Shown here: positions 12,216 through 64,000 of the stretch, in pieces
Position numbering within the stretch: the first letter of the stretch is position 1
How the letters are laid out: the number at the start of each line of letters is the position of its first letter
Assembly (NCBI GenBank): GCA_030704615.1
Contig: CM060732.1
Span: 14,012,001-14,076,000 of the forward strand
DNA: 64,000 nucleotides
Source: Takakia lepidozioides
Lineage: Eukaryota; Plantae; Bryophyta
Reading direction: 5' to 3'
Notes under the pieces: generated by a model
Seen by the model: the letters and a program-made list of their open reading frames with translations, nothing else
Told to the model about the DNA's origin: nothing
The model's database searches: none
Program-made: the position numbers and the translations under genes

Positions 12216-12422
12216 TGGCTCCTCCCTAAAGAGGAGACTACCCATCAGTGTCAAAAAAATGTCAACTCCCTGTTACACCTTCGCCAGATAACACCTTCCC
12301 CAACTCCAATTACACCTTCTCCAGATAACACCTTCCTCAAATGAACACCTAATACATACTTGAAAGTTATTTTTACGTATCTAAATATATACATATTTTA
12401 GGGTTGTATTTCAAGATATGAG

Positions 12423-22845: not shown

Positions 22846-22970
22846 GGACACTCAGAAACGATACTTATAGTATACTATAGATATAGAAATAGCACATTGG
22901 CAGCTGGTGCAAAACTAGAGACAATGCACTGTGCGTAGCATGCAAAGAGGGAAGGGGTGACGTTCAAAGC

Positions 22971-36505: not shown

Positions 36506-36509
36506 TTGA

Positions 36510-36843
36510 TTTTGGACATGGGCCGACGACATAGGCTACAGTAGAGGTCGCACTTGGGCCTCGACATAGGAGACGCATACATAGAAGATCTTACACTTGG
36601 GCCAATGGCACATGCTACCCTAGAGGTTGCATTTGGGCCTCGACATAGGAGACGCACTTGGATACATAGGGGATTGCACTTGGACTTAGATGATGACACT
36701 GGACGCTTGGGCCAACGACACAGGCTACCCTAGAGGTCGCATTTGGGCCTCGACATAAGAGACGCACTTGGATATATAGGGGATTGCACTTGGACTTAGA
36801 TGATGACATTGGAGACTTGGGTCAACGGCACAGGCTACCCTAG
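36510..36843 (+). mobile_element. Helitron-like 3'-terminal repeats (plus orientation)
   Basis: Reverse complement of the 9805 family; ends CTTGGGTCAACGGCACAGG-CTACC-CTAG|T at 36843/36844. Confidence 0.6.
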
Positions 36844-38160
36844 TGTTTTTATCTTTACTAGGGGTATGTGCGAGTACACATAGAACCCAGTTTATTATAG
36901 CTTATAGGATCTTATAAGCTTGTCTTCAGTCCCAGGGTTCTAAACAGTTTAGAATTCAGTATGCAAATTCAGGGCCGAGTCTTTGGTTTGGTTCGTCTTG
37001 GATATCTTTTAAGATATCTACAAGGACTTAACTTAACCATCCCTAAGATGCTACAATTACCCTACACTGCAAAGGTTTCGCTTTATGAGGCCAAAGAAAG
37101 AGTGAGAGATTACCGAGGCAACATGACATCATGTGTTGGCAAAAGCACAACCCAATGCGTGCATGAACCCAATGCGCACTACTACATTAGCATTGAATCC
37201 AATCTAGTCATCTGCAAAGGGCAAATAGAGACAACTCTGCTAGATGACTTAGTACAGTGAGAGATAAATGCAGCTTCGAGGGGTGATGGTGGTAGCAACC
37301 TGAATGCACAATACAACATTTGTGCGAGGCTTTGAGCTCTTAAACCGCATACCTCTTCTGCACGGCAACATACTGACCCTTGATACTGAGAATAGAAAAC
37401 GGACAAATAAAACTAAACTCCTAACCAAGCCCATGAAATGCCCTCACACACAAAGGCAGAATTTACCTCAGGATCAGATGTATCATGCCATTAAACTGCC
37501 CCTTAATGCCGTAAACAACCTGAAAACGAGGATCAAAATTTGGTTATTTTAGAGGTGATTTGGTATCTTCCTAGTACTTCCCACACTAGTGCAACAAGGT
37601 CTGGAAACTAGCACATACTGTAACATGTAGACCATAGGTCTACATGTACCATGATGGTCATTCATGGACGAAGATGAAACATATCCATGTTGTTACTTCA
37701 AGGTACCAATGCACAGTATCCTTATAGAGTGCAAGTATAAAGAAAGTAGGGCTCCAGTAGATCTGTCACTTGATGATTGGCAGCCAAGCCCGGCCCTCTT
37801 GGAAAAGTGTTCATTCCAACGCTTCTCCTCATCTCTGTTATCTGTTTTTGGATACATCGGCATAAACTTGTCAAAGTCACCCCAAACCACCACGGATCCA
37901 CCCAACGAGCTAACTTACAGAATTCATCATAGGTAATCTCGTGCTTGAAATTTGGCCCTCTTGAATTGGATGAATCTGGACCCACACTCTATCCCTGCTC
38001 CTTCAGCTTTCAGTACTGCCTCTGCACAAATCATGCATACATCCTTGCCTTGCTGCTAGCAGCTGACAATGACAGCCTACATTTGTTCTAGGAAACACCC
38101 AACTCAACTTCTCACACTAGTTCCTATGCTTAATTGCATCTGCTACTCTCTGTAATCCAA

Positions 38161-39120
38161 CACCGTTGGCCCAAGTGTCCAATGTCATCTAAGCCCAAGT
38201 GCAATCCCCTATGTATCAAAGTGCGTCTCCTATGTCGAGGCCCAAATGCAACCTCTAGGGAGCCTTTGCCGTTGGCCCAAGTGTCCAGTGTCATCTAAGC
38301 CCGAGTGCAATCCCCTATGTATCGAAGTGCGTCTCCTATGTCGAGGCCCAAATGTAACCTCTAGGGTAGCCTTTGCCGTTGGTCCAAGTGTCCAATGTCA
38401 TCTAAGTAAGTTTTTTTCCACAGAGCCTACGACCAGATTTGAACCGGAGACCTTTCCCTTGATATCTCTCCCGTCGAGGCTCCAACCATTGTCCTAGGAA
38501 TGCCCACTTTGCCAATTTTGCTATTTTTTGTGAATTTTCAGCGACCAAAAGTACTTGGAATTCCATACACCGCAGCTCCAAAAGTCATGAGACCAAGCCG
38601 GTACACCCCTCCTCCTCGAAGGCTTTCCAACAGTACTAAGCACCAGCGTCGGGGCCTCGCGGTTTGGGACATCTCAACGTGACAAAACAAAACAAAACAA
38701 AACAAACGTTTTGCTTCATAGATTGCGTCTCCTATGTCGAGGCCCAAATGTAACCTCTAGGGTAGCCTTTGCCGTTGGCCCAAGTGTCCAATGTCATCTA
38801 AGTAAGTTTTTTTTCACAGAGCCTACGACCAGATTTGAACCGGAGACCTTTCCCTTGATATCTCTCCCCTCGAGGCTCCAACCATTGTCCCAGGAATGCC
38901 CACTTTGCCATTTTTGCTATTTTTTGTGAATTTCCAGCAACCAAAAGTACTTGGAATTCCATATCTCCCACACCGCAGCTCCAAAAGTCATGAGATCAAG
39001 CCGGTGCACCCCTCCTCCTCGAAGGCTTTCCAACGGTACCAAGCACCAGCATCGGAGCCTCGTGGCTTGGGACATCTCAACGTGACAAAACAAAACAAAA
39101 CAAAACACACGTCTTGCTTC
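38161..39120 (-). mobile_element. Helitron-like repeat family, third block, with an internal ~400-bp duplication
   Basis: Same units as 9805-11470; about 38325-38720 is duplicated at about 38724-39120. Confidence 0.65.
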
Positions 39121-39965
39121 TTGCACGGAGTCTCTCGGCATTTTTTTTTTTGGCGAATTTTCGCCAAATGGCGACCTCAAAAAATAGAAAAGAATATTCC
39201 GTAGCAAATTCCATGTTTTTTCATGGATGAAATCGCCAAATTTCTCCAAAAATAATAATAATAATGGATGAATTCGCCAAATATGGATGATATGAATGGA
39301 TGAAATTACGGATGTGGATGATTCTGTCCTAATTTGAATGGATGAACAGAATATATGCCTAATCTCTGCAAAAACTCTGTAGCCACTCGTGCTATTTTCC
39401 GAATTTAAAAAAAAAACTCTGGCACGGACCATAAACGTCCTATATTTATTGTTTTTAAATTACCTAATTACATTCCTTGCTACCAACATATATCATCATT
39501 ACTCTAATAGGTAGTCACTAGTCACCATAAGGAGAAGCCATTGCGCGCGCGACGACCCGCTTGTTAGACCACCAGATCTCGTCGTCTCCCTCGCAGTGTA
39601 AGTTAGATCGGTTTGGTGTGCAGTTCAAGGCAGGGATGGAACACCGAACAGATGTTCGTGTCTCGCAAAGTTGTTTGAAAAGCAGACGTGCGAATCGCAT
39701 TCAAGTGTCAGTCATTCTGCACCCCCCCGTGATACTAAGCTGCCCTAAGCCAAGACTACCCATCTTTCCTTTTCTTTCCACAGTGACGCACTGCATGCTA
39801 CAATAAAATGTGTGGAAACGAGGGTACACGACAAATTAACAATTTGGCCGGCATTCACCCTGGTTAGGGTTTATAAACCTGGCAAAAATCCAGTTGTGGG
39901 AGAGACGGTGGAGTTCGCCTGTCATGCGAACGCATCAGCCCCACAGCCCTGACTTGTCTCCGGCT

Positions 39966-44935: not shown

Positions 44936-45729
44936 TCTCTGCTCCTGGGGTCTAGAGCAGGAACTCAGCATTGCTTGATATCAATACCCGCTGAATTCTT
45001 GTCAGCCAGATTATGGTTGGGTGTGGGGAACTGCTAAGGCATATTGGCAAGCCATGGCAATAAATCCTTAGGCAACACAGTATTGGGTGAATATCTGCAC
45101 TGGAGAGGCCCCGTTCCAGTGCTCATTCTGCTCAAGTTTTGGGGTCTTCCTGATCCTTGATGTTTATGCATATTATTGATATTCCCCAATCTTCAAGTAA
45201 AATGCAACCCTCAAATTATTGCTTGTGCCGCATTTCCATGTCCAAGTTGTCTTAAGAAAAATCTTATTTGTGCAGATTGGTTGAAGGGCAAGCAGTGTAT
45301 CACCAGAACAGAGGAACTCTCCTGGGGAAGATGCTTACATTTGAGAGGAAAGAATGAAAGGACACATGACCTAAGATGCATAAAGAGCCTCTTCAGACAT
45401 TTGACGGTTTTCCAGGAAACCCACATGACATGCCCACACTTTGTTTACCATCTGAAGCTCCTGGAGTTGTCTCAACAGGGCAAATTGTCAGCTGTTTGTT
45501 GCCATGATCGGGCTTTGGATAGGATGACCTAGTAAGCTGGGTGTTGGTGGGATTTTCTCATGACGCAAAATATTCTCCAGTTGTCGAATCATTGGTCCTG
45601 CTCCACATTAAACACAATGACACAAATTCAAAGGTGTCTCTCAACCATCCACACAAGGCTGCTGGAAGCAAGAAAGTGCTCACATATTTGGTCACAATGG
45701 ATCCTCATGCTCTAGGATTCATAGAGAGA

Positions 45730-48485
45730 TTATACTCATAAGACGTTGTTTGCCGTAGCCTTGTGGCCATTGACCCCGCGCCCAGTTTGAGCGGGAACAA
45801 AGGGACAGAACCTACCTCTGTCAGGGGCTGACGTTGGTAGTAAGACTTACCTCCATATAAAGAATTAATCCGGGTTTTCCAGATATCCTCTAGAAATCCC
45901 TTCACACAAGCATCAATCTGCTGTGTGTGATTTGCCCAAAAACTAGGCCTCAGGAGGGCCTGGGCTTTTGGCTCAGCCTCGAGACTTTCAAAGTTGGTAA
46001 ACAGGGGTACAGGCACAATTCCCTTAATAGATTTGAAGAGAGCGTCTCTTTGGTGAGAGAACCCCGGACAGTGTATCAGAAAATGAATACTGTCTTCAGA
46101 TTGCCCACACAACGGGCAATTGCACTCTCCCTTTCCTCTCTGCTTCTGTTTGCTGTTCAAAGGTAGGCTTCCTGCCCTGAGTTTAAATTCCAGATCTCGT
46201 CGGGAGCTTAAGGACGGAATGCCAAACTCACCCCGAACAGCCACATTGGCTGTTTTGGAGCATGCTGACATACACTCCTTAAGCACCCCCACTTGAATGG
46301 ATTCTAGAGACTTAGCCTGGTTGGAGTTATCAACCCATATAGCAGATCCGTACTCCACGGCAGGTCTAATAATGCGACAACGCATGGTTTTCTTAACCTC
46401 AGAGTTGACCCCTCTGCAGTGGAAAAATTTAGTGAGCCCCAGAGCTTTGCCCTTGCCAGTTTGAATAACTTTCCGGATATGTGCATCCCAATTACAATTG
46501 GAGGAGAACTCAACGCCCAGGTAAGTGTAGGAAGGGAGGACCGGATCTCTTGGCTACCCCACTGCCACTTAAGATCACTTCCTCCCTCTCCTCTGTCGTT
46601 GAATGCTACCACTGCACATTTGCTGACATTAGCCTCTAGCCCCCAAAGATCAAAGTATCTCTTCGCGCAATCAATCAACTCCTGGAGATTGGTTGGAGTC
46701 TCCCCTATGCCTGCGAAGTCATCCGCAAACATAAGGGCTGGTATGGTGGTATCACCCACCCTTAACCCAAATCCCTCACTTTCCACATCCTCGAGGAGTT
46801 GATTGATGAAAACATTGAAGAGCAGAGGGGAGAGAGTACATCCTTGAGCTACACCTTGGTCTATGTCAAAGAAGTTGGACTTCTGTCCGTTAACAGTGAC
46901 ACAGCTTTTGGTGTGAGCATACAAGTTGTGGACAACTCTCCACATCTTTCCCTTGATCCCACAAGACCAGAGGCGGAACCATAGGCCATCTCTCCACACT
47001 GTGTCATAAGCCTTTTTGACATCCAGGAAAAAGACATAAGTGGGTTTCCCTTCTTTTTTCCTTCCCTGGATAATCTGGCTAGAGTGAAGATATGATCCAC
47101 ACAGCCCCTGTTTCGCCGAAAGCCAGCTTGGCCTTCGTGGAAACAACCTCTAGACTCCAGATCAACCTCGAGACGAGTACTTATAACTCTGCAGAATGTC
47201 TTGCCAACAGCATTGAGGAGCGTGATGCCACGGTAGTTCCCCGGTTCTTCTCTGTCACCCTTCTTGTATAGATTGACAATGACCCCCTGTCGCCAGCGAA
47301 AGGGGATCATTTCAGTCTTCCAGATAAGGTTAAAGAGGAGAACTAGGGCCTCTATCATGGGATCGCCACCGTGCTTGATAAGGTCGTTGACAATACCATC
47401 AGGTCCACCAGCTTTATATCCATTTAAATGTTCAATTGCTTCCACAATCTCAGAAGAACTAATGGGAGCATTATAAGCCATTGAAATATACTCCAGTTCA
47501 TCAGGGCTGTTTTGAATCATAGGAACAGTTTTTCCAACTGTGTCCCTCCATTCAGCAGAAGACCCCTCACTGTTAGCTGACAAGGATACTGTAGTGAGTG
47601 TCAGAGGTTTTGACAATGTCAACCGATGAAGTCACCACTGCACCTTTAGTAGTCTTCAGCGCTTGTACTTGCTGACCGTTTTCGGCTTGTACAAACGTTG
47701 AAGGGCCAACCAGAATTTCTTGTCATTACCACCATGGTGGTTTGAGTTTATTTCACTGTATAACTTGTCCCAGTATAATTTCTTCTGAGACCTAACAAGC
47801 TGATTGATATCTTTACGGAGCTGGTAGTACCTCGCCCACAATTCTCTGTTGGTTTCCAAATTGCAGCACTCTTTATAGAGGGCTCGTCTCTCAGCTATCT
47901 TGAGTTTAATCTCATTAGTCCACCAATTAACTGCTCTACCGCAGACAATTAGTTTCTTCCCAATCATCTTGTCAGCCACGGAGGAAACGAAACTCTCCCA
48001 AGAGTCCACTGCTCTTTCGACTTCATTTATTGCGTTAACAGAGCGTGACTGAAGTTCTTGGAGCGATTGGACAAAATGAGGGAGAGCATCTTGCAAGTCC
48101 TGGACGTACTCAGCCTTGACCTCCTCATTGTGGAATTTTTCTATGCGCCACTTCCGAATCGAACGTTTCACAGATCTCTTGGTGGTGGGAAAACACCTTT
48201 TGATCTCAGTCCAAACCAGGAAGTGGTCAGAGGTACCAATATCAGTTCTGTCGATCAACACATTGGCACACTGGGGGAACAAAATTTTGTCCATTATGAT
48301 ATAGTCCACAATGGAACGTTCCCCAGTTTGGGGTTTCTCACGAGTCCACTGCACTTGGTCACCTCTTGTCCTGTTATTCAAGGTCAAAAGCTGAAGCTCT
48401 TCTAGACAGTTAATTAACTGTCTTCCATTAGAATTCAGCACGTCCTCACCAAAAGGTCCAATGATATCGTCCTGGTGGATCCCTT
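45730..48485 (-). mobile_element. 5'-truncated APE-RT LINE with a 12-bp target-site duplication
   Basis: APE tail SIVDYI..SDHFLV; RT motifs GPDGI, YKKGD..PGNYRGITL, QAGFR, DVKKAYDTV, GVAQGCTLSPLLF, FADD; C-terminal CPLC..HFLIHC. TSD TTCATAGAGAGA is at 45718-45729 and 48486-48497; several frameshifts. Confidence 0.93.
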
Positions 48486-51400
48486 TTCATAGAGAGAGAG
48501 AATAACAGAGGAGTTTAGGAAGACACTCACTAAGGATGGTCCCCATGCAGTTGTTTATCATTTCTTCTGGCAACTGGAGAATGTATTCCGGAACACCAGA
48601 TCCAACCAGGAACTGTGACACCTCATTTGAAAAGTGATTGCAGTTGTGACTTATAAGGTTGTAGGTCTCCTGGGTGTAGCATGGTTGAATATCTTGCAAA
48701 ATCTTCAAGTAGCTCTTTTGGCACCTGGGTGTATCCCAACTGTTCAACCTTTACTGGTGATCCATGAGGGCTCTGGCCTTTGGGTACGTTTTTAATGCCC
48801 CCACCAAAATAGTACTCGCGGCCATAAACTCCCACACCAGTATGCCTGTATGGCATAGAACACAAAAGCAAAAATGCAGTTTACAGAGACAGAGACATTG
48901 CGTGATACTGCTGTTTAAGTTAACCTTAAGAGAGCAGATCAGAAGTTTCCTGCTCCAGAACACATGTGACACAGGCAATCTCAACTGCAGATACTAAGAT
49001 GTTAAGATGTGTACCATATCCCCTCAATCACCCTTCCCAAATAAGTGGTGGAAAGCTTGAGTGCCAGGCCATGGCTTAAATCATAGATGTAAAGGACCAC
49101 TTTCTGTTCTCCTCCATAAAACACATACAATCTGAATTAGGTTTCTGGTAACCAAGGGAGCAACAGATGATTCAGTGTCTACCCTCAACTCAATTCAAGC
49201 TACCTAGTCTGATGCAACACTCTGGGACAGTGCCCACAAGACCATAAACATTGCTGTGTGTGGATACTCATTTCTATCTGCTGCTGTGTCTCAGGTACTA
49301 AATTTTATGCTGACATGTTAAAATCATCACAGAGAGGTTGATCGGCAACATCATGTTTGATGCCAATGCCAATGACTAGGATCCTTAGAAGGAAAGAAAG
49401 GCTTGCCAGCAGTGAGCGACAAAAGGATTACTCAATACAACTGGTATAGCTGCTGTCTGCCGTTGGACTATCCAAATCTTTCTATGTCAAAGTGAACAGC
49501 CCTAGAAAGTTCCTCTCGCCAATCAATGCTGTCTGCTGTCACATTCACTGCTATATTTTCAGCTTCGCAAGCAATCCATATTAGTTCTCATGTTGGAAAC
49601 CAGCAGTAAGGAATTCTGTGAGTGTATGTATGAGGGGGGGGGGGGGGGGAGATTGGGGGAGAGGGAGGAAAAAAGACAAAGGAGAGTTTTTTTGTAAAGA
49701 ATTTGTAAAAATCATACCACCGATTGTCTGGAGAAGCATGACCCACAGCCCTGAGAAAAACATTTACCCTTCACAGAGGGAGATTTCCTGAAGATTAGAG
49801 CCAATGTACCCAATGTCAAGAACTAAACAACGAATCAGGAGACCCTTAGTCAACCATGGGAACCAAACTAGAAAATACACAGCGGACTGAATACAGCCTG
49901 TTTTGGCCTCTGCCTTTGCATGTCATAAAGGTTACTTTCTCCCTCCCTCCCCCCATGACTACAAGTCTATGTCTCGCCAAATTACTTCACACCAAACAAT
50001 TCATTACTGGGCACATAGATCTCTCTCCATTTTGTGAAGGGTGGCCTAAAAGGGAAGATATGAACCTGTCGAATGGAACCCTGATCCCTACAACAGTCCA
50101 TGCAAAGGGCTTGCATATAACAGCATTCTGTTTAGGTAGGAGCAAAGATCCACACACTCAGTAGACAGCCCCTTGTCTTGGGATAAGAAAAGAGTAAGAC
50201 CATATGTTTTTCTCCTTCTCCGTCTCTACGACCCGGAAGACAAACAGAGAACAGAGTTAAGTGTCTACCGCAGAACTAAAATTTACATGTGGGGCATGAG
50301 CGTTTTGCTTCCTTGTTCAGAACATATTAGGGTACATTGTGTAAAGAATTGAAGGATCCAACTGCTTTCTTACGCACATGAGAGACCCGCTTCAATTTGA
50401 GAGTGAGAAAGGCTCTTGCGAGTCGCAGCGGTATAGCCATCAGGGGGGGCCAACGGTGGTTGCTAATCCCATTTACCAACTCCTGAGTGATTCTGGGACA
50501 CATTATTAACAAGCATTGGCCCACATGACAACAAAAGACTGTAACTTGATACTGGGACATAATTTGGTTTCTTACGCTGGAAAATTCATATGGCGCACGG
50601 TGGTTATGTTCCAAGAGAAAAACCTCAACACCCACAATGAGATTTGGGGTCGATGCCTACTGTTGTGCGTTGTTACTTATCGAATTGGCTAGCCTTGTGC
50701 GAAAGCCATATAGAACGCAACCTGCTTCCTCACCTCAGAAAACTTGTTGCTGCAAATGTATGTGGAATTAAGACCAGCAGTGAAAGCTTGAAACGACCCA
50801 GATCGCATTGTATTTGGAGAAAAATTAAAAAAAATCCATGAATTCAACTGTATTTGATGTAGGAATGCAAGGAGGTGTCTTCATCGAAGATTCACTGGCC
50901 GCTCCAAATTGCGAGAATTGCAAAACACGCGATGAGAGAGAGCACCCGTTCCGGTCCCAATGGATGAATCAATAGATGAATGAATACCCTCGACAGTTCA
51001 TCCATTAGGGCCTCCGTTCACATCCAGGCTCTCATTTTGCATCGTATCCTTCCGTACAATGGGCACTATATCCCAGACAAACGGGATAGTGTCGGGGCAG
51101 CCCCGCCTGCCACCTGCCCGCTGCGCCACGTCCTCTACGCCACGCTGGCGCACAAGCCCTCCTGCGGGACCGCCCTGCTACCCGCCCCTCTGCGCCACGC
51201 GGGCGCACAAGCTACGGGCACTCCTTGCCACGACACTATCACCTATGCTGCGGGACCCGCTGCCGCATACACTACCTCACAAATATATGGCTCTGAGGCC
51301 AACTTATAGAAGATATATGCTATTGCCAAATAGTGACTATCTTACAAGTGTCTATTTTTCTGGTTTTATATGTGCATATTAATATCTTTGATACATGGAA

Positions 51401-52294
51401 GTATATAGAAAACCTAATTATAGTGTGTGTGTGTGTTTTTCTTTTTTCTTGGGGAAGGGGATGATATCCTGAAATATAACGAGAAATTACATTTTTTTTT
51501 AAAAAGGATAGATTGTACTAAATCTATCTTAAAATAGATATATGAGTGATATAATTACTATTTAAAATGAACTTGATATACATGAGTAATTCTATATATG
51601 AGTAATATTTTTATATATTGTTCAACAAGTTTTGTTTTGTTTCTAAACAACTATGAAAGAGAGACATTATGTTTTGACATATAGGATTGTTTACATGTTC
51701 ATTAGATATTGACGCAACATGTGCCACTAGTAGATAAAAATTGATGACCATACGTAACACATGTACTCTTGCACATTTTAACAATAGTATATATAGCTCA
51801 CACTTAAGATGTATATTTTACATCCCACTAAAATTAGGCCATACACTTTTGAAAATGTATAAAATATCAACATCAAATGTAATACAAGCCTAGTCAAATG
51901 ACCCAGTTTTCATCACTTTTGCATATGGGTATGGCTACATGTATGCAAAATTGTCATACATTTTAAACCCTAAACCCTTATACATATGTTGTGTAACGTA
52001 GCACAAGCCCACTTAAATGACATTTCTAAATCCATTTTTGCACAATTTTATATATGTGTAGGGTGAGATATATGAGAATGTGATATACACTTTTGTGAAT
52101 ATGTATGAAATATCAACATCTAATGTAACACTAGGCCCCCTTAAATGACACCCTTAAACCCATTTTTGCACATTTTTCCATGTGTGTATCGCTCATTATA
52201 TGAAAATATGTCATTCAAATTGTTAATATATCTGAAATATTAACATTGAATGTATTACTAATCCTCACTTAAATGATGGCATTCCTAAAACCAC

Positions 52295-53480
52295 GTCTCC
52301 GTGAGGGTTTGGATGAAAGCGTCCAAGGGCGGATTCTTCACCTCACATGTGGCACGAGCAAGCCTTCACGTGCACATTTTGTCCCCTGGCCCGATTGCAG
52401 TACATGGGACGTTGACGCCCGAGGTCCGTGAGACAATCTACAGATTGGGAGGCTTGTTCCGGTGGATTTGCTCCAAAGAGTTGGAGGAAGCGGATTTTCC
52501 ACGCATGAAGAAGGAGGCGGCGGAGGTAATGTGTATGTTGGAGATGAACCTTCATCCCTCTTTCTTTGACATCCATGTGCACTTGGTAGTGCACTTAGTG
52601 GAAGAGGCTTTGATCGTCGGCCCCGTTTATTCCTGAGCGTTACATGAAGACTTTGAAAGCATTTGTAAGACAAATGGCGCACCCGAAGAGTACGCCGCAG
52701 AGTGCATGCGGAGGGGTAATACATTTCAAGAACTATTTTCTAATTGCATTTGAAGTACATGGTAAGGGTGGATGATAAGCCCCTCGGATGTGGAAGCAGA
52801 GGAGGATGCACGAACCAATACATCGTGTTGCCCAAAAATCGAAGAGGGTAAAATTGTCGACCTTGGTTATTGGGCAAGCGCATGATTCATGCTGAAGAAC
52901 ACCCCATCCATACATGAGTGGAGGCAAGATACAATAACCTTGTTCAACACCAGAGGAGGGATGCTTGCATGGAGGCGGAACCATCCAAGGCCGGTTACTA
53001 GACGCCGTCGACGAGGAGCGGGCGCCGGAATGTTCTTCACAAGATTTGCCCGTGGAATTGCAGCCTTTAAGGTTCATTCCAACAGTGGCTCAAGACTCAA
53101 TTTATACGTCGTTTCTCAAGGGTGGGTGTTTCAGATATGGTGCAAGACCTTGCAAAGGGCTCATCTCAATTCGTGACCTCATACACACGGCGTTTTTGGA
53201 TCACGGTTGTCATTTCCGCATTCGTGCTCTGACATGAAGCGCAAACAACGTTTGATTTTGGCTGTGTGCCACATATTGGCAAGACTCCGTGTGGGGTAAG
53301 GGAGATACACGACCTGCTATGAGCAAACTTGAGTCATTGGAGAGCTTGAGAGCATACTCCAACTTCAGTATACAAGTACCGGACTCTTCTCTTCAAGGGA
53401 AGGTAAGTTCCAGCCACACTTGTGGGGCCCGCCACAACATAGTGCGAGATGATTGTGGGTTTCATGCACGTCAATGCAGA
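52295..53480 (+). mobile_element. Degenerate CACTA transposase remnant (DUF4218/DUF4216 region)
   Basis: FRWICSKE..LEMNLHPSFFDIHVHLVVHLVEEALIVGPV..ERYMKTLKAFVRQ; many stops and frameshifts; no TIR identified. Confidence 0.8.
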
Positions 53481-53485
53481 TAGGC

Positions 53486-55240
53486 TCAACCCTCGGAAAT
53501 GGGGAGGTTAAAGTTAGTGTGTAAAGCGGAGATACGCGCTGTGTGTATCCCTCCCCTGGTACCGGCAGTAATGACGATCAAGGGGCCTGTGGACCCATCC
53601 TTCGGCGGCGGAAGGCCAGGATGAGCGGGGCGTATTTTTTTTCTTTTCTCAAGCGTGGATGAGCTAAGGAACCGTTCATTGCAGTATGTAAACTCAATAA
53701 AATGTATTGTAAGGTGGGGGGAGGGGGCGTCCGGGGGTGGGGTGTTGAGGGGGAGCCCTTGCACAAGCAAGATGTCAGGGCAGAGCCTGGCTGGGCATTT
53801 ACAAGGTGAGGGTCGTCGGCATGTGCATGGTAGAAGCCAGGAGGGGACTGTGGGATCCGAGAGCCTGCCTTGGTATGTGCCTGCATTAATCAATGAGAAC
53901 CAGCGAGTTTCAGGTCTACGTAGGAGGAGTTTATGAATGTGCCATACGACATGGTTATGCCGGGTGACATGGAGGCCGTGGATGATGGGGTGAGGGCATT
54001 GACTGAGGAGGGTGCGGCCGTGTGCGATCAAACTTTGACAAGGTGAACTAGTTGCTTTAGAGATATAGCAAGATGCACGATTGCGGAGATGAGATTCCAA
54101 TCCGGGTGGTAAGTGAAGGAGGGTCGAGATAGGTGGTTGCGAATGAGAAAGATGGAGGTAAGACTGTCAGTGAAGATGTAGTTGGGGGGGGCGAGTTGGG
54201 TGAGGGCATCATGAATGGCCCTAAGCTCGGCCCGCAGTATGGTGTCTGGGCCAGGGAGCCGCATGGCACACCTTGGCATGGGTCGGCATGATAGATGTCG
54301 TAGCTGGCACTAGAACCCATAAGGGAACCGTCAGTATAATGTGAGTTAGCTAGTGGGTATCCATGAGTTAGAGGAGACTCGGATACTGGGGGGTTGGTGG
54401 GGGTTATCACAGGAAGTGGGGCGAGGGGGCGGGGAGGCCGCCTTAGACTAGGATGTGCATGGGACGATCCCACGGGGTGAGATGGTAGTGGTGGGTTGGG
54501 GAGGAGGACATGGGGAAATGGTAGCCTGCATGCTATATGTGTCTGTTAGAAGGCGTGAGAGGTGGTTAGAGAAGTCGGTAGGTATGGTTAAGTAGTTGCG
54601 GGGGCTGTGGATAATATATATAAGGGTCAGGGTAGGTTCCCGATGTTTTAGGTATTTGGGGAAGGGTGGGGTACTGTGGTACTGGGTCTGGTTAGGGTCA
54701 TTGGCAGCTAAGGGAGTGATTTCAGGGGGGAGCTGGAGGAGAGGGTGCGCGGAAGATGGCAACTGCTGATTAGTTAAGATGAGGATGGTGGCGGCTATTG
54801 GAGAGGACTGGGTGGCAAGGCACGCCCATTGGAGAGCGTCATGCATAAATTCCCCTGGGGGGGTTGCGTCAGGCCATGACCAGACCATTTATGATGTGTG
54901 AAGGGGCCGGAGGCACCAAATAGTCTCGGGGGTGTGGGCTTGAGTCTGAAGAGAGCTCCATTAGGCAAGTGAGGGGGCTGGAGAAGTATGAGTGTGTAAT
55001 TTGGAAAGAGGTTATAATAAAGGAAAGTAGATCAGTTGGGAGGGTAACATGGGCGTAAGCTTGTGTTAGTTTAAGCGGGGTGCGGGGTTTTTTCGGGGGG
55101 GTATCTTTCAAGTATCGTTCGACAAGCTAGTGGAGTTCTGTAGCGAAGTCTTTCTTAGGAGGTAATAGATGGCTGGGTGGTGGGTCAGAAAGAGAGAATC
55201 TATGCCATAGCCAGTCTTGATTTTCTTGTGTTTGGATCCC
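53486..55240 (-). mobile_element. Second Dualen/RandI-like LINE remnant: PCIF1-like MTase region, RNase H, RLE
   Basis: YFSSPLTC...RD-LFGASGPF..WSGHGLTQPP (about 55000-54860); HYTDGS, TILRAELRAI, YIFTDSLTS; LLSQC..VTRHN..CPDILL..FIEFT..VITAGTRGGIH. Clearly paralogous to 34642-36505. Confidence 0.8.
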
Positions 55241-55499
55241 CTCCACACTTGCATGCTTGACTGTGCGCCATGTTAGCTTTGTGTAGGCGCTTGTTTTCAT
55301 AGGAGGTTGGTCCGGATTTGATCACCGGTCAATCCTAGAGCGTGCTGTCGGTGGTGAGGCTGGGGTGATGACCAGTCAGACCATCATTGTTTCTCTTATG
55401 GCAAGGCTGGGTTGATGACCAGCAGACCATAGGAGTGCTTGCGGTGGATGCAGGTTGCAGGTTTATGTTACGAACCTAGTAGTCTAAGCCATAAGCCGC

Positions 55500-58400
55500 A
55501 ACAGGTTCTCTACCCGGTTACCTTGTAGAAAGGGGATTAGAGACAAGTTTACAACAGGTGTGGTTGTGAGTTTTCATCACGGAGGTGCCACCAGTTGCTG
55601 ATGAGAGTGCTGGTACGAGCACCAGCGATACTAGTGGGTATACAAGACGAGGTGTGCGGTTTAGGCCACATTCACCTTCAGTGTCTTCTGAGGAAGGTTC
55701 AGACTCAGAGTTAGGAGGATTCTCGCCGAGGGTGCAAGCCATTTCTGTGTCATTGTTTGTGGATCGATGGAAGAAATGTATGGAGCTACCAAGGGGCCAC
55801 GTCGGCTCTGGAGCTGTGGGCACCATCGAGCTTGATGATTTCATACAGGAGTTTGATAGTTGGTGTGATTTGCAGCAGATGTGCAATCCACAACTGTTGA
55901 CGTCTTTTATGGCATGGAAGGGGCTGTTTCAACACTTTGAGGGGCCGCCCATGGATGACTACCATGAGTTTAGGCGGGGACATGAGGTGGAGATTGAGGA
56001 ATGACGGGTGTATTGGTCACCTGACTATGTTTCCACTAGAGGCACAAGGGCAGTAGTGACACCGGCAGCTTCTGCAAGCAGCAGTGGGATGTCAAGTGGA
56101 ACAGGAGCTGGGAGGTCCACCCAAGCTCCTGCTGCAGCACCAACACCCATGCCTGCCTTTAACCCTTGTGGGGTTCTTCGAGGAGTTAAGGAGAAACTAC
56201 CAGGGGATAATGACGGAGAAATTGCGGAACTTGCAAGAGTTCCAACGAAAGCCTATTGAGAGTTTGAGGGAAAATTACACGCGCATGAGGCGATTGATAA
56301 ATGTAACCCAAGGGGTTATGGAAGCTCAAGCAGTCCAATTCTGGTATGGGATATTGGACAAGGAGCTGAGGAGAAGGGTGCGGGATGTAACTCTCCTACA
56401 AGTGGCCCAACCCACCTTAGCAAACGTGTTTTTGCTGGCAGAGCGGATAGAGCTCAATATGGTGGAGGAACGAGTGGTCATGGTGGGGTTCAGTAAGGAG
56501 ACACAATGAAGTGGGGCTCCTAGCCAACAACAACCACTACCCCAACGTGCTCAAGACAACAAAGGGGCTCAGACGAAGCCCTGGGAAGGACAGAGAGGAT
56601 CTCAATTGCAGAGGTCACTTCCTTTATTCTCAGACCAACAACAGTCGGGAGTGACATGTTGGGATTGTGGAGGACCCATGTTAAGAGATATTGCCCAGAG
56701 AGAGGCAAAGGGCCGGCACATGCACAGCCTACACAACCACAGTGTAGGCATTGTGGCAAGTATGGGCATGAAGAGACCCATTGTTATGACTTGCATCCTG
56801 AGCTACGGCCAGGCCAGTTCCAAGGAAACAATGGTGGCCAAGGATGAGGTAATGTATTCCAGAGAGGTAGAGGAGGCAGAGGTCGTGGTGGAGGTCGTAA
56901 CCAAAACCAAGGAGCACAGGGTCAGGGTCAAGGTCATGACCAAGGCATGGTGGATAGGCTTGCCCAGCTAGAGCAACGTCTTGCTACCATGGCCACTACT
57001 CATGTTGCGCCAGCTCCAAGGCGTGAGGTTCAAGCCCCACCTGCACAACCTCCTATGCCTAGGGAAGACCAGATTGGTATGGGCTTCATGTGTGGAGCCG
57101 CACTTGCAGGACCATTGCATGTGGACTCTGTAGCTGCTGTCACTCAAGAAGCAACGCGTGCTCCTGAGCCAAGAGGAGCGGATGTGGATTTTGATCCACA
57201 AAGAGGGGAAGCAAGTCGGCAGACAAGGCTTCCATAGTCTTTCACATTTGGCTGAGACAGTGCCAACTATGCCATCGATGGCACCCGCTCGCCCAAGTGT
57301 GTCAGAGGTAGAGCCACGAGTGCCATTGGGGAGATTTGATATGGCCTCGGGAAATGCCAATGGGTGGTACTGCAAAGCAAGGTGCGCCAGTACATTGTTG
57401 GGGCGGCTACGACAATTTTCCAAGCTCCATTGTTTTCTGCCACGACAATTGCAATGCCGGAGATGCGGATAGCTGTAGTGTTTATACTGGCAGCTGCACT
57501 CTGTGAGAGTGGTGATGCATCGGCATATCTGCGGGGATAGCGGATCAGGTGTAGTGCATGGATGCCCTGGATTCAAGGGTGAAGATAGCCACAGTTGCGC
57601 CATGGCAAGCGGCAGCTGCAAGGTTGCAGGAGTTGCCAGCTAGCCCAGCTATTGAGCGTAGTATGGTGATTCCTCGGGTAGTCCTGGTGGACAATCAGGA
57701 TGGTGTGTTTCAGTTGGGTGGCCCAGCCGGGAGGAGGTATAGGCCACTGCGGGTCTTGTTGGACTCGAGAGCACAGCCATTGATGTTGGGGAGAGCAGCA
57801 ATTACAGGCTTGGGCCTTACAGCGGCGGATTTGGAGCCTTGCCCTTTCCAATTCAAAACATCTTTGGGCGGTTCAGAGAAGGCACAAGGGATTACACGCC
57901 ATTAGCTCTTCATTCGATTGTAGCCAGATCATTCTACAGATGGCTCTGTCATGAGAGCTAAAGCCATTGTTACGGACGCGATGTCTTATGATGTGCTTGT
58001 TGGTGGGGCTGTGTTATACCTGATGGGCTTTACTTTGGACTTTTGGGAGGAAACAACATCCTATAGGCCGGAATGGCAGTCAGGTGATGGTCGACGTGCA
58101 CCGCTCCCAGTGCGGTTTATTGGGAATGTAGCGGTGGATCATAGGAACATGATGCCCACATTGGCTGCATTCTCAGAGATGGTGGCTTGGGGTGGTGAGC
58201 TCTTGGAGGGCAATAGCCATGCAGATGATAGGCCACCACCTGATGAGGACAAACAATTGGCATACAAGGCTGATTTGCTTCATCATGTGCCTGTTCATAC
58301 TCCACTGTGGAGTACAGTTGGGAATTTGCATCGAGTAGCAGGCGAGTGTGTGTACCAAGCATGGCAGGAGGCCTATCCATTGGTGAGTGAGGGGAGTTCA

Positions 58401-61400
58401 GTGACATCACCTGGACATCCTCAGTTAGCTCCTTTGGACACAATGCCCATTACCTGGCAACCACCTGACTCAGGGATTTGTTTTGCTGACCTGTTGGAGG
58501 CATGAACACTGGGCTTGCAGGAGTGTTGCAAACAGGGATTAAAGTACGCAAGTACTTGTATGTGGAGAAGGATGAGATAGCTCAGCGTATTTCTATGTGC
58601 CACATTGCCTTGCTCACACACCGGTATCCTGAGTTGTTGCCTCTCTCAGCAATTCAAGGGTATCAAAAGGCTTTGCCAGCAGACATTACCTTGCTGGGCG
58701 GCGATGATTTGGACCGGCATGGTGCCATTGACTGATGATTAGTTAGATGGCCTTGCCAATGACACTCCTCCCGCAGGTCATGGGAATGGCTTCATGATGC
58801 ACGATCGCATTTGTTTTGGGAGATGTTGAGAGTGTTGCGTGACTTGCAGACAATGCAAGTGCAACCTCTAGCCTATATCTTGGAGAATGTTCCTCTTATG
58901 GGGGCCAGGGTTATGGCCAGTGTGCATCAGGTGCGGTCTTGGGATTGGATCGGCGGTGCTATTGGATGTAGCACGTGGGATCACGCGCGCATCGACCTCA
59001 ATTATGGTGGACCGATCTTGCAACCACCAGAGCTGCTCAAGAGAGCATACGACCGTTCATTCAACGGCCACCCAATCTCACGGTTGAGGGCATTTTGGAC
59101 TAAGGGAGGCAACCACAGAGGGTGCGACATGATGACCATCCACCTCTAGCTGTGGTCAATCGAGTGGGGCATCCACGTACGGCCTGGCCTATGCTCATGA
59201 GCTTTCCCTCGTCTCATGCTTTTCGAGACAATGGTTCGGGGTTGATTTGGGACAGTGTGGCACAACATTGGTGGAGCCCAATGCAGATAGCGAGAGCGGG
59301 CAATGGGATTTGCCACGGGCACTACAGCTATGCCAGCTCTGTCAGAAGCATCACGCCGACATTTGTTGGGTCAAGCAATGGATTTAAATTTCTTGATATG
59401 GGTCATTGGCTTGTGCATGGCTGAGCAACAGAGGTTGCAGATAGTGGTGGCTACTTGTGCACTCCCATTTGGTATTGTATCCCCTCTGCCAACCGGGACG
59501 GTTGAGGCAGTGAGTGGGGGCGAGCACATGATCATGGGATGCAAACACCCATGGCAGATGTGGGATGAGATGCGGACAGAGAGAGTCCTTGGATCTCTCA
59601 AGCAGCAATATAAGGAGTGGGGAGAGCCATACACTGAGGATCATATGGAGGCCAAGGTGGCCAATGTTTTTGAGAAGGTTGAGAATGTTCTTCTTCTTTC
59701 CCTAGAGATGTTCGCAAGGTGGCTATGGCAGAGCAAGTGGAGGCTACGCCACGGTCAGGGTGGGCGGATAAGGTCCAAGAGGTTGCTATCTAGCAACCAA
59801 AGGATGCGTCTCCTACCTCCAAGCCCGGTGTACCCAAGGTTGCAGTCACTGAGGACAATTGGGAACCAGATGTTGGACCTACAGTCACCAGAGGAGAGAG
59901 ACGGAGGATCCAACGATTTCTAAGGGCTTATAGAAATTGCTTTGCCTTCAGTTTGAAGGATTTGGGGAGTTTGAAGGGCCAGGAGATTCGTATTGATTTG
60001 GCAAGTGATACGCCAATTTTTCGAAGGCCCTACAGGTATAGTGACATGGAGAGGTCTTTGATCTAGTCACGGACTATGAAGTTATTCAAAGCTGGATTGG
60101 TGGAGTTGTCAGGCGGGGAGTATGCCTCGGCAACGGTGATGCCAGCTAAGAAGGATATCTATGGCAATTGGACAGAAAGAAGGATGTGTGGGGACTATTG
60201 TCCTATGAACCGTCAGACTAATTCCGATAGATATGCCATGCCAACTCCAGAGGAAATCTTTGATGCCATTGGGCATGCGAAGGTGTTTAGCACATTGTAC
60301 TTGCGATCCGGTTACCACCAGTTGCCAATCAAAGAGGTTGACAATCAAAAGATGACATTCTGGGGGATTGACCAACATGGGAAGGATTGCTTGTACCAAT
60401 GGCGCTTCCTACCATTTGGGTTGAAGAATGCTCCTGCCGAGTTTCAGAGGGTCATGGATAGGATTCTTGCAGGGCTAGACTTTGTCCGGTGCTACATTGA
60501 TGACATCATCATCTTTAGTGCCACGGTTGAGGAGCATGAGAGACACCTTCAGGTGGTGTTTGAGCATTTGAGGGTGCATGGATTGAAACTGCACCCTGGA
60601 AAGCGCAAGTTCTTCCACGATCAGATTGAGTATCTGGGTCACATGATATATCCTAGAGGATTGGTGTGTTCAAAAGACGAAGGTGGAGGCCATTGCACGC
60701 ATTCCACGCCCCATCGATGTTAGCAGAGTTTGTGCTTTCATGGGGTTGGCAAACTACTATCGACGGTTTGTCAAGGGATTTAGTAGCATTGCAAAGGCTC
60801 TTACCAAGTTGACCAAGGTGGATCAGGAGCGGCAGTGGGAGGAGGAGCAGGAGGAAGCCTTTGAGGAACTCAAGGCTCGATTGACTTCTGCACCTATTCT
60901 GAGGCGGCCTATTCGGGGGCGGCCTTTTCAGCTACATACGGATTGGAGTATGTTGGGGATTGGAGCAGTGCTCACACAGGTGGATGACAAGGGAAGAGAG
61001 TTCGTAGTGGCATATGCCAGCCGCTTGAACAATGATGCTGAGGCGAAGTATAGCTCATATGAAGGGGAGTGTCTAGCTGCGGTATGGGCAGTGGCACATT
61101 TCAGATGCTACCTCTATGGCAACCTCTTCATCCTTGTCACGGATCACCAACCATTGAAGTGGTTGATGGAGTCAGACAAGCTTACAATGAAGCTTGCACG
61201 GTAGGCACTTATGCTTCAAGAGTACGACTTCCAGGTGGTGCATCGAGCCGGTATAGTCAATCGGGATGCAGATGGGTTGAGTCGTAATCCATGCACAAGC
61301 GAGCATGATGATACTGGAGCTCGGTGGCATGGTGAGACGGATGAGGAGATGGTGCCAGGATGGCATGCATCTGCCTTTTTGTGCATCCTAGCAATGGGAG

Positions 61401-62066
61401 CTCAATCTGGTCCATCCCATAGGATTGGTCATGAAGATGGTGTGCATGACGATCCGGAGATCAGTGAAGAGCTTGGTGGTGCTAAGGATTTGCATGAAGA
61501 TGCAGCAGTGTTGGCCTACCTTCGTACAGGTTAGACAACAGCCAGTGTGACTGCTAAGGAGAGAGATCGGATCCTACAATACGCCAAGAGGTTCAAGTGG
61601 GAGAGGACTCACCTACTCCGAGTATGGGAGGATGGACGAGTGAGGATTGATCTCATTCAACACAACGAGCGCGATTGGTACGCCATGCCATGGGGAGTTG
61701 GGACATTTTGGGATGCGGCGCACTCATAGTTTGCTGCAAGGATAGTACTGGTGGCAAGACATGCACACGGATGTGCAACAGTTAGTAGCAAGGTGCATGG
61801 TGTGTGATAGAGTGCGGGCTTCTTTCAATGCACCTACTCCACAATTGCATCCGTTACCCATTATGGGTTTGGGCTATTGTTGGAGTCTTGACTTCGCAGG
61901 CCCATTGCCACTAATGATTCGCCATAACAAGTATGTGCTGGTGATGGTGGAACATTTCTCCAAATGGATTAAACTGGTGGCATTGCCTGACAAGGCAAGT
62001 GAGGGGGCTGCGTATGCATTCTTAGATCGAGTGCTTAGCCAATTTGGTGCTCCAGCCGAGGTGCTC
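55500..62066 (+). mobile_element. Degenerate Ty3/Gypsy retrotransposon carrying a cytosine-5 DNA methyltransferase domain (gag-CCHC2-PR-DNMT-RT-RH-INT)
   Basis: Gag (LQEFQRKPIESLRENYTRM), Zn knuckles CWDCGG-HVKRYC and CRHCGKYGHEETHC, PR VLLDSRAQ, DNMT 58450-59420, RT (LPFGLKNAPAEFQR, YIDD), RH (LHTDWS..YEGECLA), INT (C..C, WSLDFAGP, HFSKWI). Interrupted at 62067 by a younger LTR. Confidence 0.9.
58450..59420 (+). pseudogene. DNMT3-like C5 cytosine methyltransferase domain within the Gypsy polyprotein
   Basis: After correcting single-base indels: motif I DL(F)GGMNTG, II YLYVEKD, IV IDL.I..WPCQ (PCQ 58751-58759), DARSHLFWEM, VI YILENV (ENV 58883-58891), VIII GSRAHRPQLWWTDL, IX EPNAD-RERAMGFATGTT, X SRRHLLGQAMDL. 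Confidence 0.88.
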
Positions 62067-62790
62067 TGTCGCGGCCCTTTGCCTTGAGGGCAGGGGGTCG
62101 GGACACATGAGGGGCTGCCCCTGTGGTGGGGGCAGCGGCAGCGATAGGTATGGGGGGGCTGAAGCACCCTTGAGTGCCCAAGGCACTCAAGGAGGCGGAG
62201 GCGCTCACTAGGTGGAGCCCCGCACACCGGGTTGCGGTGGAGGTGGCTCCACAAGGGGTGGTGGTAGCTTAGTGGGACTTAGTGGGGTGGCATAGGACTC
62301 ACCATGGGGTGGAGACCTCGAGGTGGGAGTCGTGGGGAGTCTTGGGACTCATCACGGTCCATTGGGGCCGCGGTGAGTGGGCCAAGACTCACCGCGACTC
62401 ACCACCGGGAGTCGAGGGTTTTCGTGGTGGTTCGCCATAAAATGGCATGGCTGGTTATGAAACCCCCGCGGACAGCTACAGAAGTATATATAGGGAGTAG
62501 TAACCCCGAGAACGGTGCAAGCCCGTTGGTGACCAAAAACTAGTGAGTAAGCGAGCGAGCCGGAAAGCGACCAAAGAGTGGGGAGCTGTTCCGGACTGCC
62601 ATCTACCAAAGGGAATTCTCCTAGTCCCAAATAGGTGGAGGGTTTAGAGGGAAGCGGAAGGGGACCGTTATGTCCCGGTGAGCAGCCGAAACTCCAAGTT
62701 GGCCCGGCGGCCAGGTTGGGAGTCAGGCGCGCGCATCAAAGCGAGTAACTATGACTTGAAGGGGAGTTTACCGAACTGAGGTGTGCGACA
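62067..62790 (+). repeat. 5' LTR (724 bp) of a young Ty3/Gypsy element
   Basis: TGTCGC...GCGACA inverted termini and an internal TATATATAG. It is immediately followed by a PBS and abruptly interrupts the integrase ORF of the DNMT element. Confidence 0.9.
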
Positions 62791-62792
62791 TT

Positions 62793-62804
62793 TGGTATCA
62801 GAGC
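62793..62804 (+). promoter_or_regulatory. Primer binding site complementary to tRNA-iMet
   Basis: TGGTATCAGAGC, 2 nt after the LTR terminal CA. Confidence 0.92.
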
Positions 62805-62845
62805 TTAGAGTTCAGTACGCGATCGTCCTTGGGATTGGCCTCATC

Positions 62846-64000
62846 ATGGGGTCGGGCAAGCCGAAGCGAAAGCGGAACGGCCCAAAAGATGATGATCCCG
62901 GTGAGCCCGATGGGGGCGACGTGTCACCGAGGCGGCCGTTTGAGGAAGCGATTAATGTTTCCGAAAACGAGGCCGCTCAGGAGCGGGAGGAATCCGAGGA
63001 GTCGGAGCCCGAGGAATCTTTGAGAGCTCCGACAAACCAAGAGATGCCTCCCATGCCGGCAGCCTTTTGGGAAGGGTTGTTGGCGCAGTTTGGCGGGACG
63101 TTGAAAGACGTGTTGAAGGCGGCTAATGCCACTTCCACCAAGGCAAAGTTTAAGGTGAAGCCTAAGGAACCCGGCACCTTCGAGGGCGTTCGAAACCGGA
63201 AGGCACTCAACACCTGGCTCCTGGAGCTAGAGCAGTACTTCCGGGCGGCCAAGTTGAGTGACGAGGATCGGGTGGAAGTGGCTCCCACCTATTTGAGGGG
63301 CTATGCTCAACAATGGTGGCAGAAACGCCTTCACGACCGAGGCCCAAGCCCGGAAACCTTGAACTGGAGTGAGTTCAAGGAATTGATGAAGAGACAGTTT
63401 GTGCCCCTCAACGCGTCCTGGCTTGCCCGGGACAAGATGAGGAATTTGAAGCAAACAGATGACATTCGGGGGTATGTCCAGGCTTTCAATGTGCTGTTGC
63501 TCGAAGTCGCGGACATGGCAGAACCAGAAATGGTCTTCAACTTTGTGGCGGGACTGGCCCCATGGGCTAGGCGGAAGTTGGAGGAGAAGCCACCCAAGAC
63601 TTTGAACGAGGCAATTGAGAGAGCTGAATGTTTCTCGGATGTCCCTAGGGGTGAGAGACAAGGCCGTACGGAGCTGAACCACAAGAAGACCCGGCGGGAA
63701 GGTGACTCCTCCCGACCGGAAAAGAAGTGGGATAGGCCACGCGGCGAAAATGGCACGTGGAAATCGAAGGGAGGTCCTTCACACGTCAAGGCGGCACCCG
63801 GTGCTTCGAAAGGAAAAGCGGGTGGAGCGACTTATGGCGGACAGAAGGCGACCTTTGATGGAGTGTGTTTCAATTGCGGGGAGCCCGGGCACATGGCCAA
63901 GAAGTGCACGAAGCCCCGGCAATTGAACATGACTCGGGCGACCACGGAGCTGTCGGAAGATACCATCAGTCGCTTGGTGGAAGCGGTGGTCGCCAGGACT
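62846..64000 (+). CDS. Intact Gag(-pol) ORF of a chromovirus-like (Galadriel-type) Ty3/Gypsy element, running off the window
   Basis: Open frame from ATG 62846: KPKEPGTFEGVRNRKALNTWLLELEQYF...YLRGYAQQWW...LKQTDDIRGYVQAF...FVAGL...CFNCGEPGHMAKKC; no stop before the window end. Confidence 0.9.
   Translation, partial: MGSGKPKRKRNGPKDDDPGEPDGGDVSPRRPFEEAINVSENEAAQEREESEESEPEESLRAPTNQEMPPMPAAFWEGLLAQFGGTLKDVLKAANATSTKAKFKVKPKEPGTFEGVRNRKALNTWLLELEQYFRAAKLSDEDRVEVAPTYLRGYAQQWWQKRLHDRGPSPETLNWSEFKELMKRQFVPLNASWLARDKMRNLKQTDDIRGYVQAFNVLLLEVADMAEPEMVFNFVAGLAPWARRKLEEKPPKTLNEAIERAECFSDVPRGERQGRTELNHKKTRREGDSSRPEKKWDRPRGENGTWKSKGGPSHVKAAPGASKGKAGGATYGGQKATFDGVCFNCGEPGHMAKKCTKPRQLNMTRATTELSEDTISRLVEAVVART

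Follow-up and report, generated by a model that had tools for sequence, protein, structure and literature searches.

The stretch of DNA analyzed here, a window of 64,000 nucleotides from contig CM060732.1 of Takakia lepidozioides (Bryophyta), almost certainly contains a dead copy of a Ty3/Gypsy retrotransposon family whose polyprotein includes a DNMT3-like C5 cytosine DNA methyltransferase (DNMT), located between the protease (PR) and the reverse transcriptase (RT). An element of this kind, KnitGypsy-Dnmt3 of the charophyte Klebsormidium nitens, has been described, in which Dnmt3 is part of the Gypsy Pol and the repeats are DIRS-like (de Mendoza et al. 2018, PMC5890265; here and below, PMC and bioRxiv numbers refer to the accessible parts of these sources). 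As judged from sequence relationships, the Takakia element appears to be the same lineage extended into land plants. To the extent of the literature found, the kind of element is already known from a charophyte, while its occurrence in land plants, a conserved stop codon between DNMT and RT, and split ends with 4-bp target duplications are new. The features of the copy, in window coordinates, are the following:

55222..55758, plus strand: what is left of the 5' leader of the element; the terminal repeat on this side is apparently lost
55759..56713, plus strand: gag, broken; 54-64% identity to the gag of Marchantia Mp4g09160; PF03732 weak, E 0.055
56677..57525, plus strand: zinc-knuckle and linker region, broken; 32% identity to Mp4g09160, E 3e-21
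57678..58079, plus strand: aspartic protease, broken; 56% identity to the family protease, E 3e-44
58469..59401, plus strand: DNMT3-like C5 cytosine methyltransferase, motifs I to X in canonical order, broken
59791..59799, plus strand: in-frame stop TAG, then CAA CCA, ending the Gag-PR-DNMT frame
59941..60663, plus strand: RT of Ty3/Gypsy type; PF00078, E 4.6e-29
60920..61285, plus strand: RNase H (RH); PF17919, E 6e-34, and PF17917, E 2e-30
61746..62066, plus strand: integrase (IN), consisting of the zinc-binding portion and the beginning of the core, where a nested insertion interrupts it
62067..64000, plus strand: second, nested Gypsy element, foreign to the DNMT element; long terminal repeat (LTR) 62067-62790, tRNA-Met primer-binding site 62793-62804

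Pfam and homolog alignment together recover the gag-PR-RT-RH-IN order of Ty3/Gypsy. The best solved-structure match of the window RT is the Ty3 RT (E 1e-31), and in a quick tree this RT groups with bryophyte elements (12-row group, support 90). For the integrase, PF17921 (E 8e-5) and PF00665 (E 2e-6) are both under the cut-off, and identity to the Sphagnum fallax integrase is 84%; PF13650 was found by Pfam scan in the relatives P0023 and P0036. The copy is truncated near 55222, where the depth of same-species contigs jumps (about 55222-55245) and a loose end is present at 55222; its stretch before gag measures about 0.55 kb, versus about 1.5 kb in Sphagnum-like copies. Because the nested Gypsy sits in the integrase at 62067, the 3' end of the DNMT element lies outside the window. 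The nested element has a 724-bp LTR, with TGT...ACA ends and TGGTATCAGAGC read in the sequence, and a gag frame that is open to the window end (PF03732, E 7e-16).

The methyltransferase motifs all lie on the plus strand. Motif I is split by a frame break into ADL (58485-58493) and GMNTG (58499-58513), and is followed by YVEKDE (58559-58576), WPCQ (58748-58759), LENVP (58880-58894), AHRPQLWW (58987-59010), ERAMGF (59294-59311) and LLGQAM (59363-59380); the catalytic PC corresponds to 58751-58756 and its Cys is kept. An earlier, sequence-only reading of this DNA had the canonical order right, whereas the motif "LFGG", which it lists, is interrupted by that break. It had also described a dead, intronless domain flanked by protease and RT in the same orientation, and in this it is borne out: PR lies at 57678-58079 and RT at 59941-60663, several frame changes and stops fall inside the domain, and the DNMT span is 933 nt in the window versus 939 nt in uninterrupted relatives, a near-equality from which the lack of introns follows. 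The domain of the Marchantia family aligns with the window pieces at 53-80% identity (E 2.6e-85), the next-best window match having only E 1.5. The search with PF00145, proposed in that reading as a check, fails on the window itself, where the best of five DNMT-region fragments, the only one with a hit, stays under the cut-off (E 0.045); the homologs do pass it, 6 of 9 in one set and 17 of 21 long homologs in another.

The assignment to DNMT3, also proposed from the sequence alone, agrees with the best Protein Data Bank sequence matches of the Calypogeia protein, which are DNMT3A/3B (E 8e-11); DRM (4e-7) and bacterial enzymes (4e-4) score less well. Identity to DNMT3A/B is 21-24%; phage methyltransferases match the family domain at 22-28% among the 25 matches listed, about as close as DNMT3A, so that the donor may have been either a phage or a host. 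A single-sequence fold of P0021 was poor (predicted local distance difference test, pLDDT, 33), and an alignment-based AlphaFold2 model of the domain of the relative L027 was used instead (pLDDT 88.9); it matches DNMT3A with E 2e-17 and a template-modeling (TM) score of 0.73, and an Atlas model agrees on a DNMT3-like fold (TM 0.77). Thus, on the model of L027, the domain is predicted to fold like DNMT3A. Identity as a plant DRM was rejected, since the motifs are linear and not circularly permuted. Pfam scans of the family proteins found no PWWP, ADD or plant N-terminal domain.

Residues Cys95, Asn139, His177 and Arg180 are invariant across 22 aligned sequences, and the motif-IV pattern with the catalytic Cys is found in 118 of 150 distant relatives. 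Among these 150, GWECQ is the commonest form of motif IV (57), versus GWPCQ (38), the Cys being kept in both; the WECQ form includes P0054, P0068, P0076, P0077 and P0080.

The domain is a trait of the family, as several searches indicate. A 77-aa fragment of the window retrieved 17 homologs with 64-72% identity, one of them named Sphagnum troendelagicum; P0012 is a Sphagnum homolog. Of the 21 long proteins that a second search retrieved, 16 carry a species name: Marchantia polymorpha (14), Calypogeia fissa (1) or S. fallax (1). The Marchantia protein Mp4g09160 is a 1278-aa Gag-PR-DNMT frame. The order gag-PR-DNMT-RT-RH-IN recurs in the Sphagnum, Marchantia and Calypogeia proteins. A metagenome scan yielded 80 loci, 62 of them distinct once near-identical ones were collapsed; where enough flank was present, PR lies upstream in 54/58 and RT downstream in 45/51, with near-constant spacing, figures to be read knowing that the loci were picked by motif IV and VIII patterns, which biases both motif retention and domain order. 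A search with RT only returned 50 proteins, and in nine of these, with RT identities as low as 48%, PF00145 is on the same polypeptide; many of the other matches start just before RT, so that their upstream content is invisible and some members may be without the domain. P0115 is an unbroken polyprotein of 2811 aa with DNMT, RT, RH, IN and PHD. In same-species contigs the summed depth reaches 70,000-86,000 over the DNMT bins versus about 60 on the flank and is continuous across PR-DNMT-RT, which shows that the family is abundant in these contigs, depth being no copy number. A scan of viral contigs found no relative of the DNMT element. The copies that the sequence-only reading proposed to look for, with PR, DNMT and RT in one plain open reading frame (ORF), are found as to order, while in this branch the frame is divided by a conserved stop.

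An exhaustive DNMT search gave 215 clusters at E up to 1e-30. Among the best 150 of these, 91 carry another retroelement domain: in 17 DNMT comes after PR or before RT, in 74 after RT/RH or before IN. In a FastTree phylogeny with a phage root, from which rows of unknown architecture, domains shorter than 270 aa and eight Marchantia rows that are near-duplicates were omitted, the RH-DNMT-IN type makes up a single clade (73 rows, support 99) that lies among the PR-DNMT forms; this topology suggests one move of DNMT within the polyprotein. The members of this clade, with the order RT-RH-DNMT-IN-PHD, are P0141, P0158, P0207 and about 70 others, including Scenedesmus "pol" proteins. Organism names were available for 5 of the 20 clusters looked up; the named PR-DNMT members are K. 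nitens KFL_013780020 and Closterium, and the named RH-DNMT-IN member is Scenedesmus. A transcript of Coleochaete scutata encodes the RT-IN-PHD part, with 67% identity to the RT of L080.

The link to Klebsormidium, foreseen from the sequence, is supported by KFL_013780020, a gag-PR-DNMT protein that aligns with Mp4g09160 over PR, linker and DNMT (569 columns, 29% identity, E 1e-54); DNMT identity to the K. nitens protein is 38%. The DNMTs of K. nitens and of the family fall in one group of 103 rows (support 89) inside an element clade of 109 rows, in a FastTree phylogeny rooted on four phage enzymes alone, without host DNMT3 rows. With members in Closterium, Klebsormidium, bryophytes and a chlorophyte, the family seems to go back to a single ancient capture within green plants and not to be a peculiarity of one lineage. 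In the RT tree, Marchantia and Sphagnum-like elements stand together (support 93), with 72% identity in the DNMT region, and the liverwort Calypogeia stands outside; this grouping could reflect horizontal transfer or old paralogous lineages. Calypogeia also has a second, distant lineage (P0067).

The comparison of nonsynonymous and synonymous rates (dN/dS) across copies, suggested by the sequence-only reading, gave DNMT values of 0.08-0.23 for seven pairs drawn from different lineages (the window is a member of two of these pairs) and of 0.48-0.91 for four pairs of close dead copies; these values are rough, dS being near saturation and the codon filter favoring conserved stretches. They point, with that roughness, to purifying selection on DNMT between lineages.

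In the relatives PR-DNMT and RT are in frame, parted by a conserved stop. An in-frame stop occupies the homologous place in 46 of 52 sequences (34 TAG and 12 TAA, all followed by CAR-YY), most rows being close kin and representing about four independent lineages; the six exceptions are one sense codon and five sequences disrupted at this place. The window has TAG CAA CCA, and the bases after the stop are CAG TTA in L079, CAA TCA in L080 and CAA CCC in Sphagnum-like elements. Over an 86-base stretch covered by 219 same-species contigs, no alternative letter reaches at least 5% at the nine positions of the stop context. CAR YYA after UAG is the readthrough signal of tobacco mosaic virus (PMC2754532). 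This resemblance in sequence makes it quite probable that translation yields mostly Gag-PR-DNMT and that RT-RH-IN arises by readthrough; many DNMT molecules would therefore be present per particle. Neither the conserved stop nor the split ends had been recorded in the sequence-only reading.

The ends of the element are seen in Sphagnum-like relatives, which are Gypsy by their enzymes but do not show the canonical pair of identical, complete LTRs. Their layout is instead A (339 bp), coding part, purine tract, B (113 bp), 2 nt, A, junction and B, or A-coding-B alone. The 15 independent loci with repeats downstream of DNMT comprise six with B-A-B, five with B alone and four that are cut or deleted; none of the 15 has a complete A at the host junction, and none of 21 independent 5' ends has B upstream of the 5' A. 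All five elements with both host junctions show a 4-bp target duplication and TG...CA-type ends, a sixth being cut by the contig end. The internal B|A joint is a palindrome, ACA-GC-TGT or a close variant, while the last A|B joint is variable, like an end-joining scar, and L037 and L040 retain there the sequence that follows the 5' A. A G-rich polypurine tract lies before the first B. Within the A repeat, downstream of a TATA-like box, is a segment that complements the sequence after A; this self-priming complementarity is perfect in 5 of 20 5' repeats, and in L066 the duplex is 17 bp long (fold z -2.7). With the purine tract before B, and the start site and the LTR 3' end in A, the true LTR would therefore be B-NN-A. 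The relatives encode a DDE (rve) integrase, and no tyrosine recombinase family appears in their Pfam scans; membership in DIRS/PAT/Ngaro was rejected on these two grounds. In L030 (6583-6993) and L034 (6348-6758) an inverted B with adjacent 3' sequence stands in place of the 5' A, resembling a product of intramolecular integration.

These features can be arranged in a life cycle, made of a packaged DNMT, readthrough, circle integration and methylation of the element's own cDNA, which as a whole we regard as fairly probable. The ribosome would mostly halt at TAG-CAR-YY, giving abundant Gag-PR-DNMT, with RT-RH-IN made through readthrough; the protease would then free DNMT, which is likely packaged, inside the particle. 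Reverse transcription, probably self-primed as in Tf1, would generate a linear cDNA with the true LTR B-NN-A, which would then be circularized with one or two LTRs. Cuts by the DDE integrase after each CA of ACA-NN-TGT, inside the LTR, would lead to A-coding-B or A-coding-B-A-B insertions; this is the simplest way to obtain the forms seen, and the pattern of the joints inclines us slightly to such integration from circular cDNA through the internal palindrome. Finally, DNMT would place 5-methylcytosine on the extrachromosomal DNA, which would enter the genome pre-marked like host DNA. Methylation of the element's own cDNA before insertion is slightly favored, because DNMT is in the Gag frame, the putative extrachromosomal circle fits, and the related SymbioDIRS-Dnmt3 enzymes methylate CG.

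A wider proposal is tentative and, in our view, rather doubtful: that of a green-plant-wide Gypsy class without integration of linear ends, in which a DDE integrase would cut the palindrome of a circle, as in bacterial insertion sequence (IS) circles, and DNMT, brought to capsid stoichiometry by a leaky stop, would methylate that circle. On this proposal the choice between the two palindromes might even depend on the methyl mark, and in Marchantia the host genome might gain de novo methylation when these copies are released.

Several observations weigh against this life cycle, in addition to the selection of the metagenome loci and the roughness of dN/dS given above. The sixth base of the readthrough context is C, and not A, in 42 of the 46 sequences, and the stop is absent in the deeper lineages P0057, P0077, P0080, P0083 and P0115. 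The 5' repeats without perfect complementarity score 10-13 of 14, versus 7-11 in control windows. All the terminal evidence comes from Sphagnum-like loci that are about 70% identical to the window, and their terminal repeats have no match in the window's 5' region. The mirror form A-B-A-coding-B, expected of a symmetric two-LTR circle, occurs in 0 of 21 5' ends; its lack would be explained on the assumption that the site nearer the circle junction (113 versus 339 bp) is preferred. CpG depletion specific to the DNMT element was not found relative to the window repeats or to the Sphagnum-like flanks: the observed/expected CG ratio is 0.47 in the DNMT element, 0.45 in a LINE, 0.61 in a CACTA element and 0.81-0.89 in two other Gypsy stretches, and the values of Sphagnum-like elements (0.53-0.59) do not fall below those of the flanks (0.23-0.65). 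In yeast, no methylation was obtained with the Klebsormidium domain, a result that its authors call inconclusive; human DNMT3B failed too (PMC5890265).

The missing mirror form also speaks for an origin of the split ends without a circle cut by integrase, through DIRS/Ngaro-like recombination, through template jumps leading to a linear A-coding-B-A-B, or, for the short form, through later recombination of B with B. A-coding-B-A-B is indeed a layout of the PAT/Ngaro type (PMC7192593, PMC5890265), and B-by-B recombination could yield the five B-only copies; however, the relatives encode a DDE integrase and no recombinase family found by Pfam, their TGT...ACA ends carry 4-bp duplications in five cases of five, and the 2 nt within the internal junction are the spacing that would be required for paired cuts after CA. 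We consider this explanation possible but unlikely.

It is also improbable, in our judgment, that the domain is conserved for another role, such as DNA or RNA binding in the particle, RNA methylation, or methylation of insertion sites or host chromatin in trans. The inactivity of the Klebsormidium domain in yeast and the CpG depletion that is not element-specific would fit such a role, as would the prevalence of GWECQ over GWPCQ among the distant relatives and the large clade with DNMT between RH and IN, in which its position is seen not to be fixed. On the other hand, the catalytic Cys persists in most distant relatives and the four residues listed above are invariant, while related SymbioDIRS-Dnmt3 domains methylate CG de novo (PMC5890265). 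That a processed fragment of a host DNMT3 landed once in a dead Gypsy copy has a negligible probability: the domain is intronless and DNMT3-like and bryophytes own host DNMT3 genes (PMC6453930), but its recurrence at one position and with one spacing across mosses, liverworts, Closterium and Klebsormidium, the contig depth continuous over PR-DNMT-RT and the selection between lineages refute it.

The remainder of the window contains host sequence and other repeats. Exons of a host callose synthase are found at 903-7358 (PF02364, E 2e-48). A CACTA-type transposon (PF02992, DUF4218) occupies 19062-27110, with a divergent cluster of minus-strand ORFs that includes a NIF-family phosphatase domain (PF03031), and a second CACTA remnant lies at about 52289-52636. 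Two related ORFs on the minus strand (34642-35430 and 53486-54166), with a CxxC..HxxxxC knuckle and a PD..(E)xxxC stretch, have no Pfam match; we take them to be like the tail of a restriction-endonuclease-type retroelement. The LINE, with endonuclease and RT, is at 45705-48486 on the minus strand, an unrelated decayed Gypsy pol at 30095-31792 on the plus strand, and two clusters of a 50-110-bp repeat family, inverted copies included, at 9832-12216 and 36508-39134.

The question why retrotransposons carry an enzyme that silences them has stood open since 2018, the known hosts being difficult experimental organisms; the M. polymorpha members with annotated Gag-PR-DNMT frames, such as Mp4g09160, make it testable in a genetic model. 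Should the proposed route be true, the family would depart from the textbook route through linear cDNA, as an LTR element that regularly uses a circle for integration. Counts of DNMT3 genes in bryophytes need the exclusion of element-borne copies.

The sequence-only reading did not know such elements as a described land-plant feature, and the literature search agrees: no report was found of a DNMT-bearing Gypsy in land plants, of its readthrough stop or of its integration route, Repbase and most subscription journals being outside the search. Land-plant copies are unmentioned in the accessible parts of PMC12344493, PMC6453930, PMC8885841, PMC10952607, PMC11982613, PMC9940879, PMC6673714, PMC7192593, PMC5784723 and bioRxiv 363937, whose supplements may hold some. 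PMC12344493 names "streptophytes" loosely, citing the 2018 paper; in Mpmet mutants of Marchantia, the up-regulated genes are enriched for "methyltransferase activity" (bioRxiv 10.1101/363937).

Among known systems, host DNMT3 enzymes (animal DNMT3A/B and the moss PpDNMT3, PMC6453930) share fold and motif order with the domain, which, unlike them, is embedded in a retroelement. Retrotransposon-borne C5 methyltransferases are also known from Symbiodinium, in SymbioDIRS-Dnmt3 and SymbioLINE-Dnmt (PMC5890265). SymbioDIRS has A-coding-B-A-B repeats too, and its Dnmt3 methylates CG in yeast (PMC5890265); however, these elements use a tyrosine recombinase (DIRS) or are without LTRs (LINE), whereas the present family has a Ty3-type RT, a DDE integrase and 4-bp duplications. 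As in the self-priming chromoviruses Tf1/Sushi and Tcn1, which occur in mosses, the putative primer site is complementary to the predicted 5' end of the RNA and not to a tRNA (PMC6317226). Unlike these chromoviruses, the DNMT-family relatives end in a PHD finger, have no chromodomain in Pfam scans and have split ends. In the bacterial elements IS3 and IS30, circle junctions are cut by a DDE enzyme. Foamy virus integrase also cuts a palindromic junction, that of the 2-LTR circle (PMC1180852); there the site is the LTR-LTR junction and the route is a retroviral side route, while here the site lies inside the LTR and the route would apparently be the regular one.

The closest system is KnitGypsy-Dnmt3, with which the family shares the Gypsy domain set, an intronless and unpermuted Dnmt3-like domain in the polyprotein, purifying selection and, in the relatives, the A-coding-B-A-B repeats, the K. 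nitens layout being that of the Fig. 4c legend (PMC5890265). The accessible text of that paper makes no mention of a readthrough stop, target duplication, self-priming or integration mechanism, and its species table, as accessible, has no Marchantia or Sphagnum entry. Unlike KnitGypsy-Dnmt3, the present family has a land plant as host and is abundant; and while the capture was there considered independent in the K. nitens lineage (PMC5890265), here relatives are found in Closterium, in bryophytes and, with DNMT between RH and IN, in Scenedesmus.

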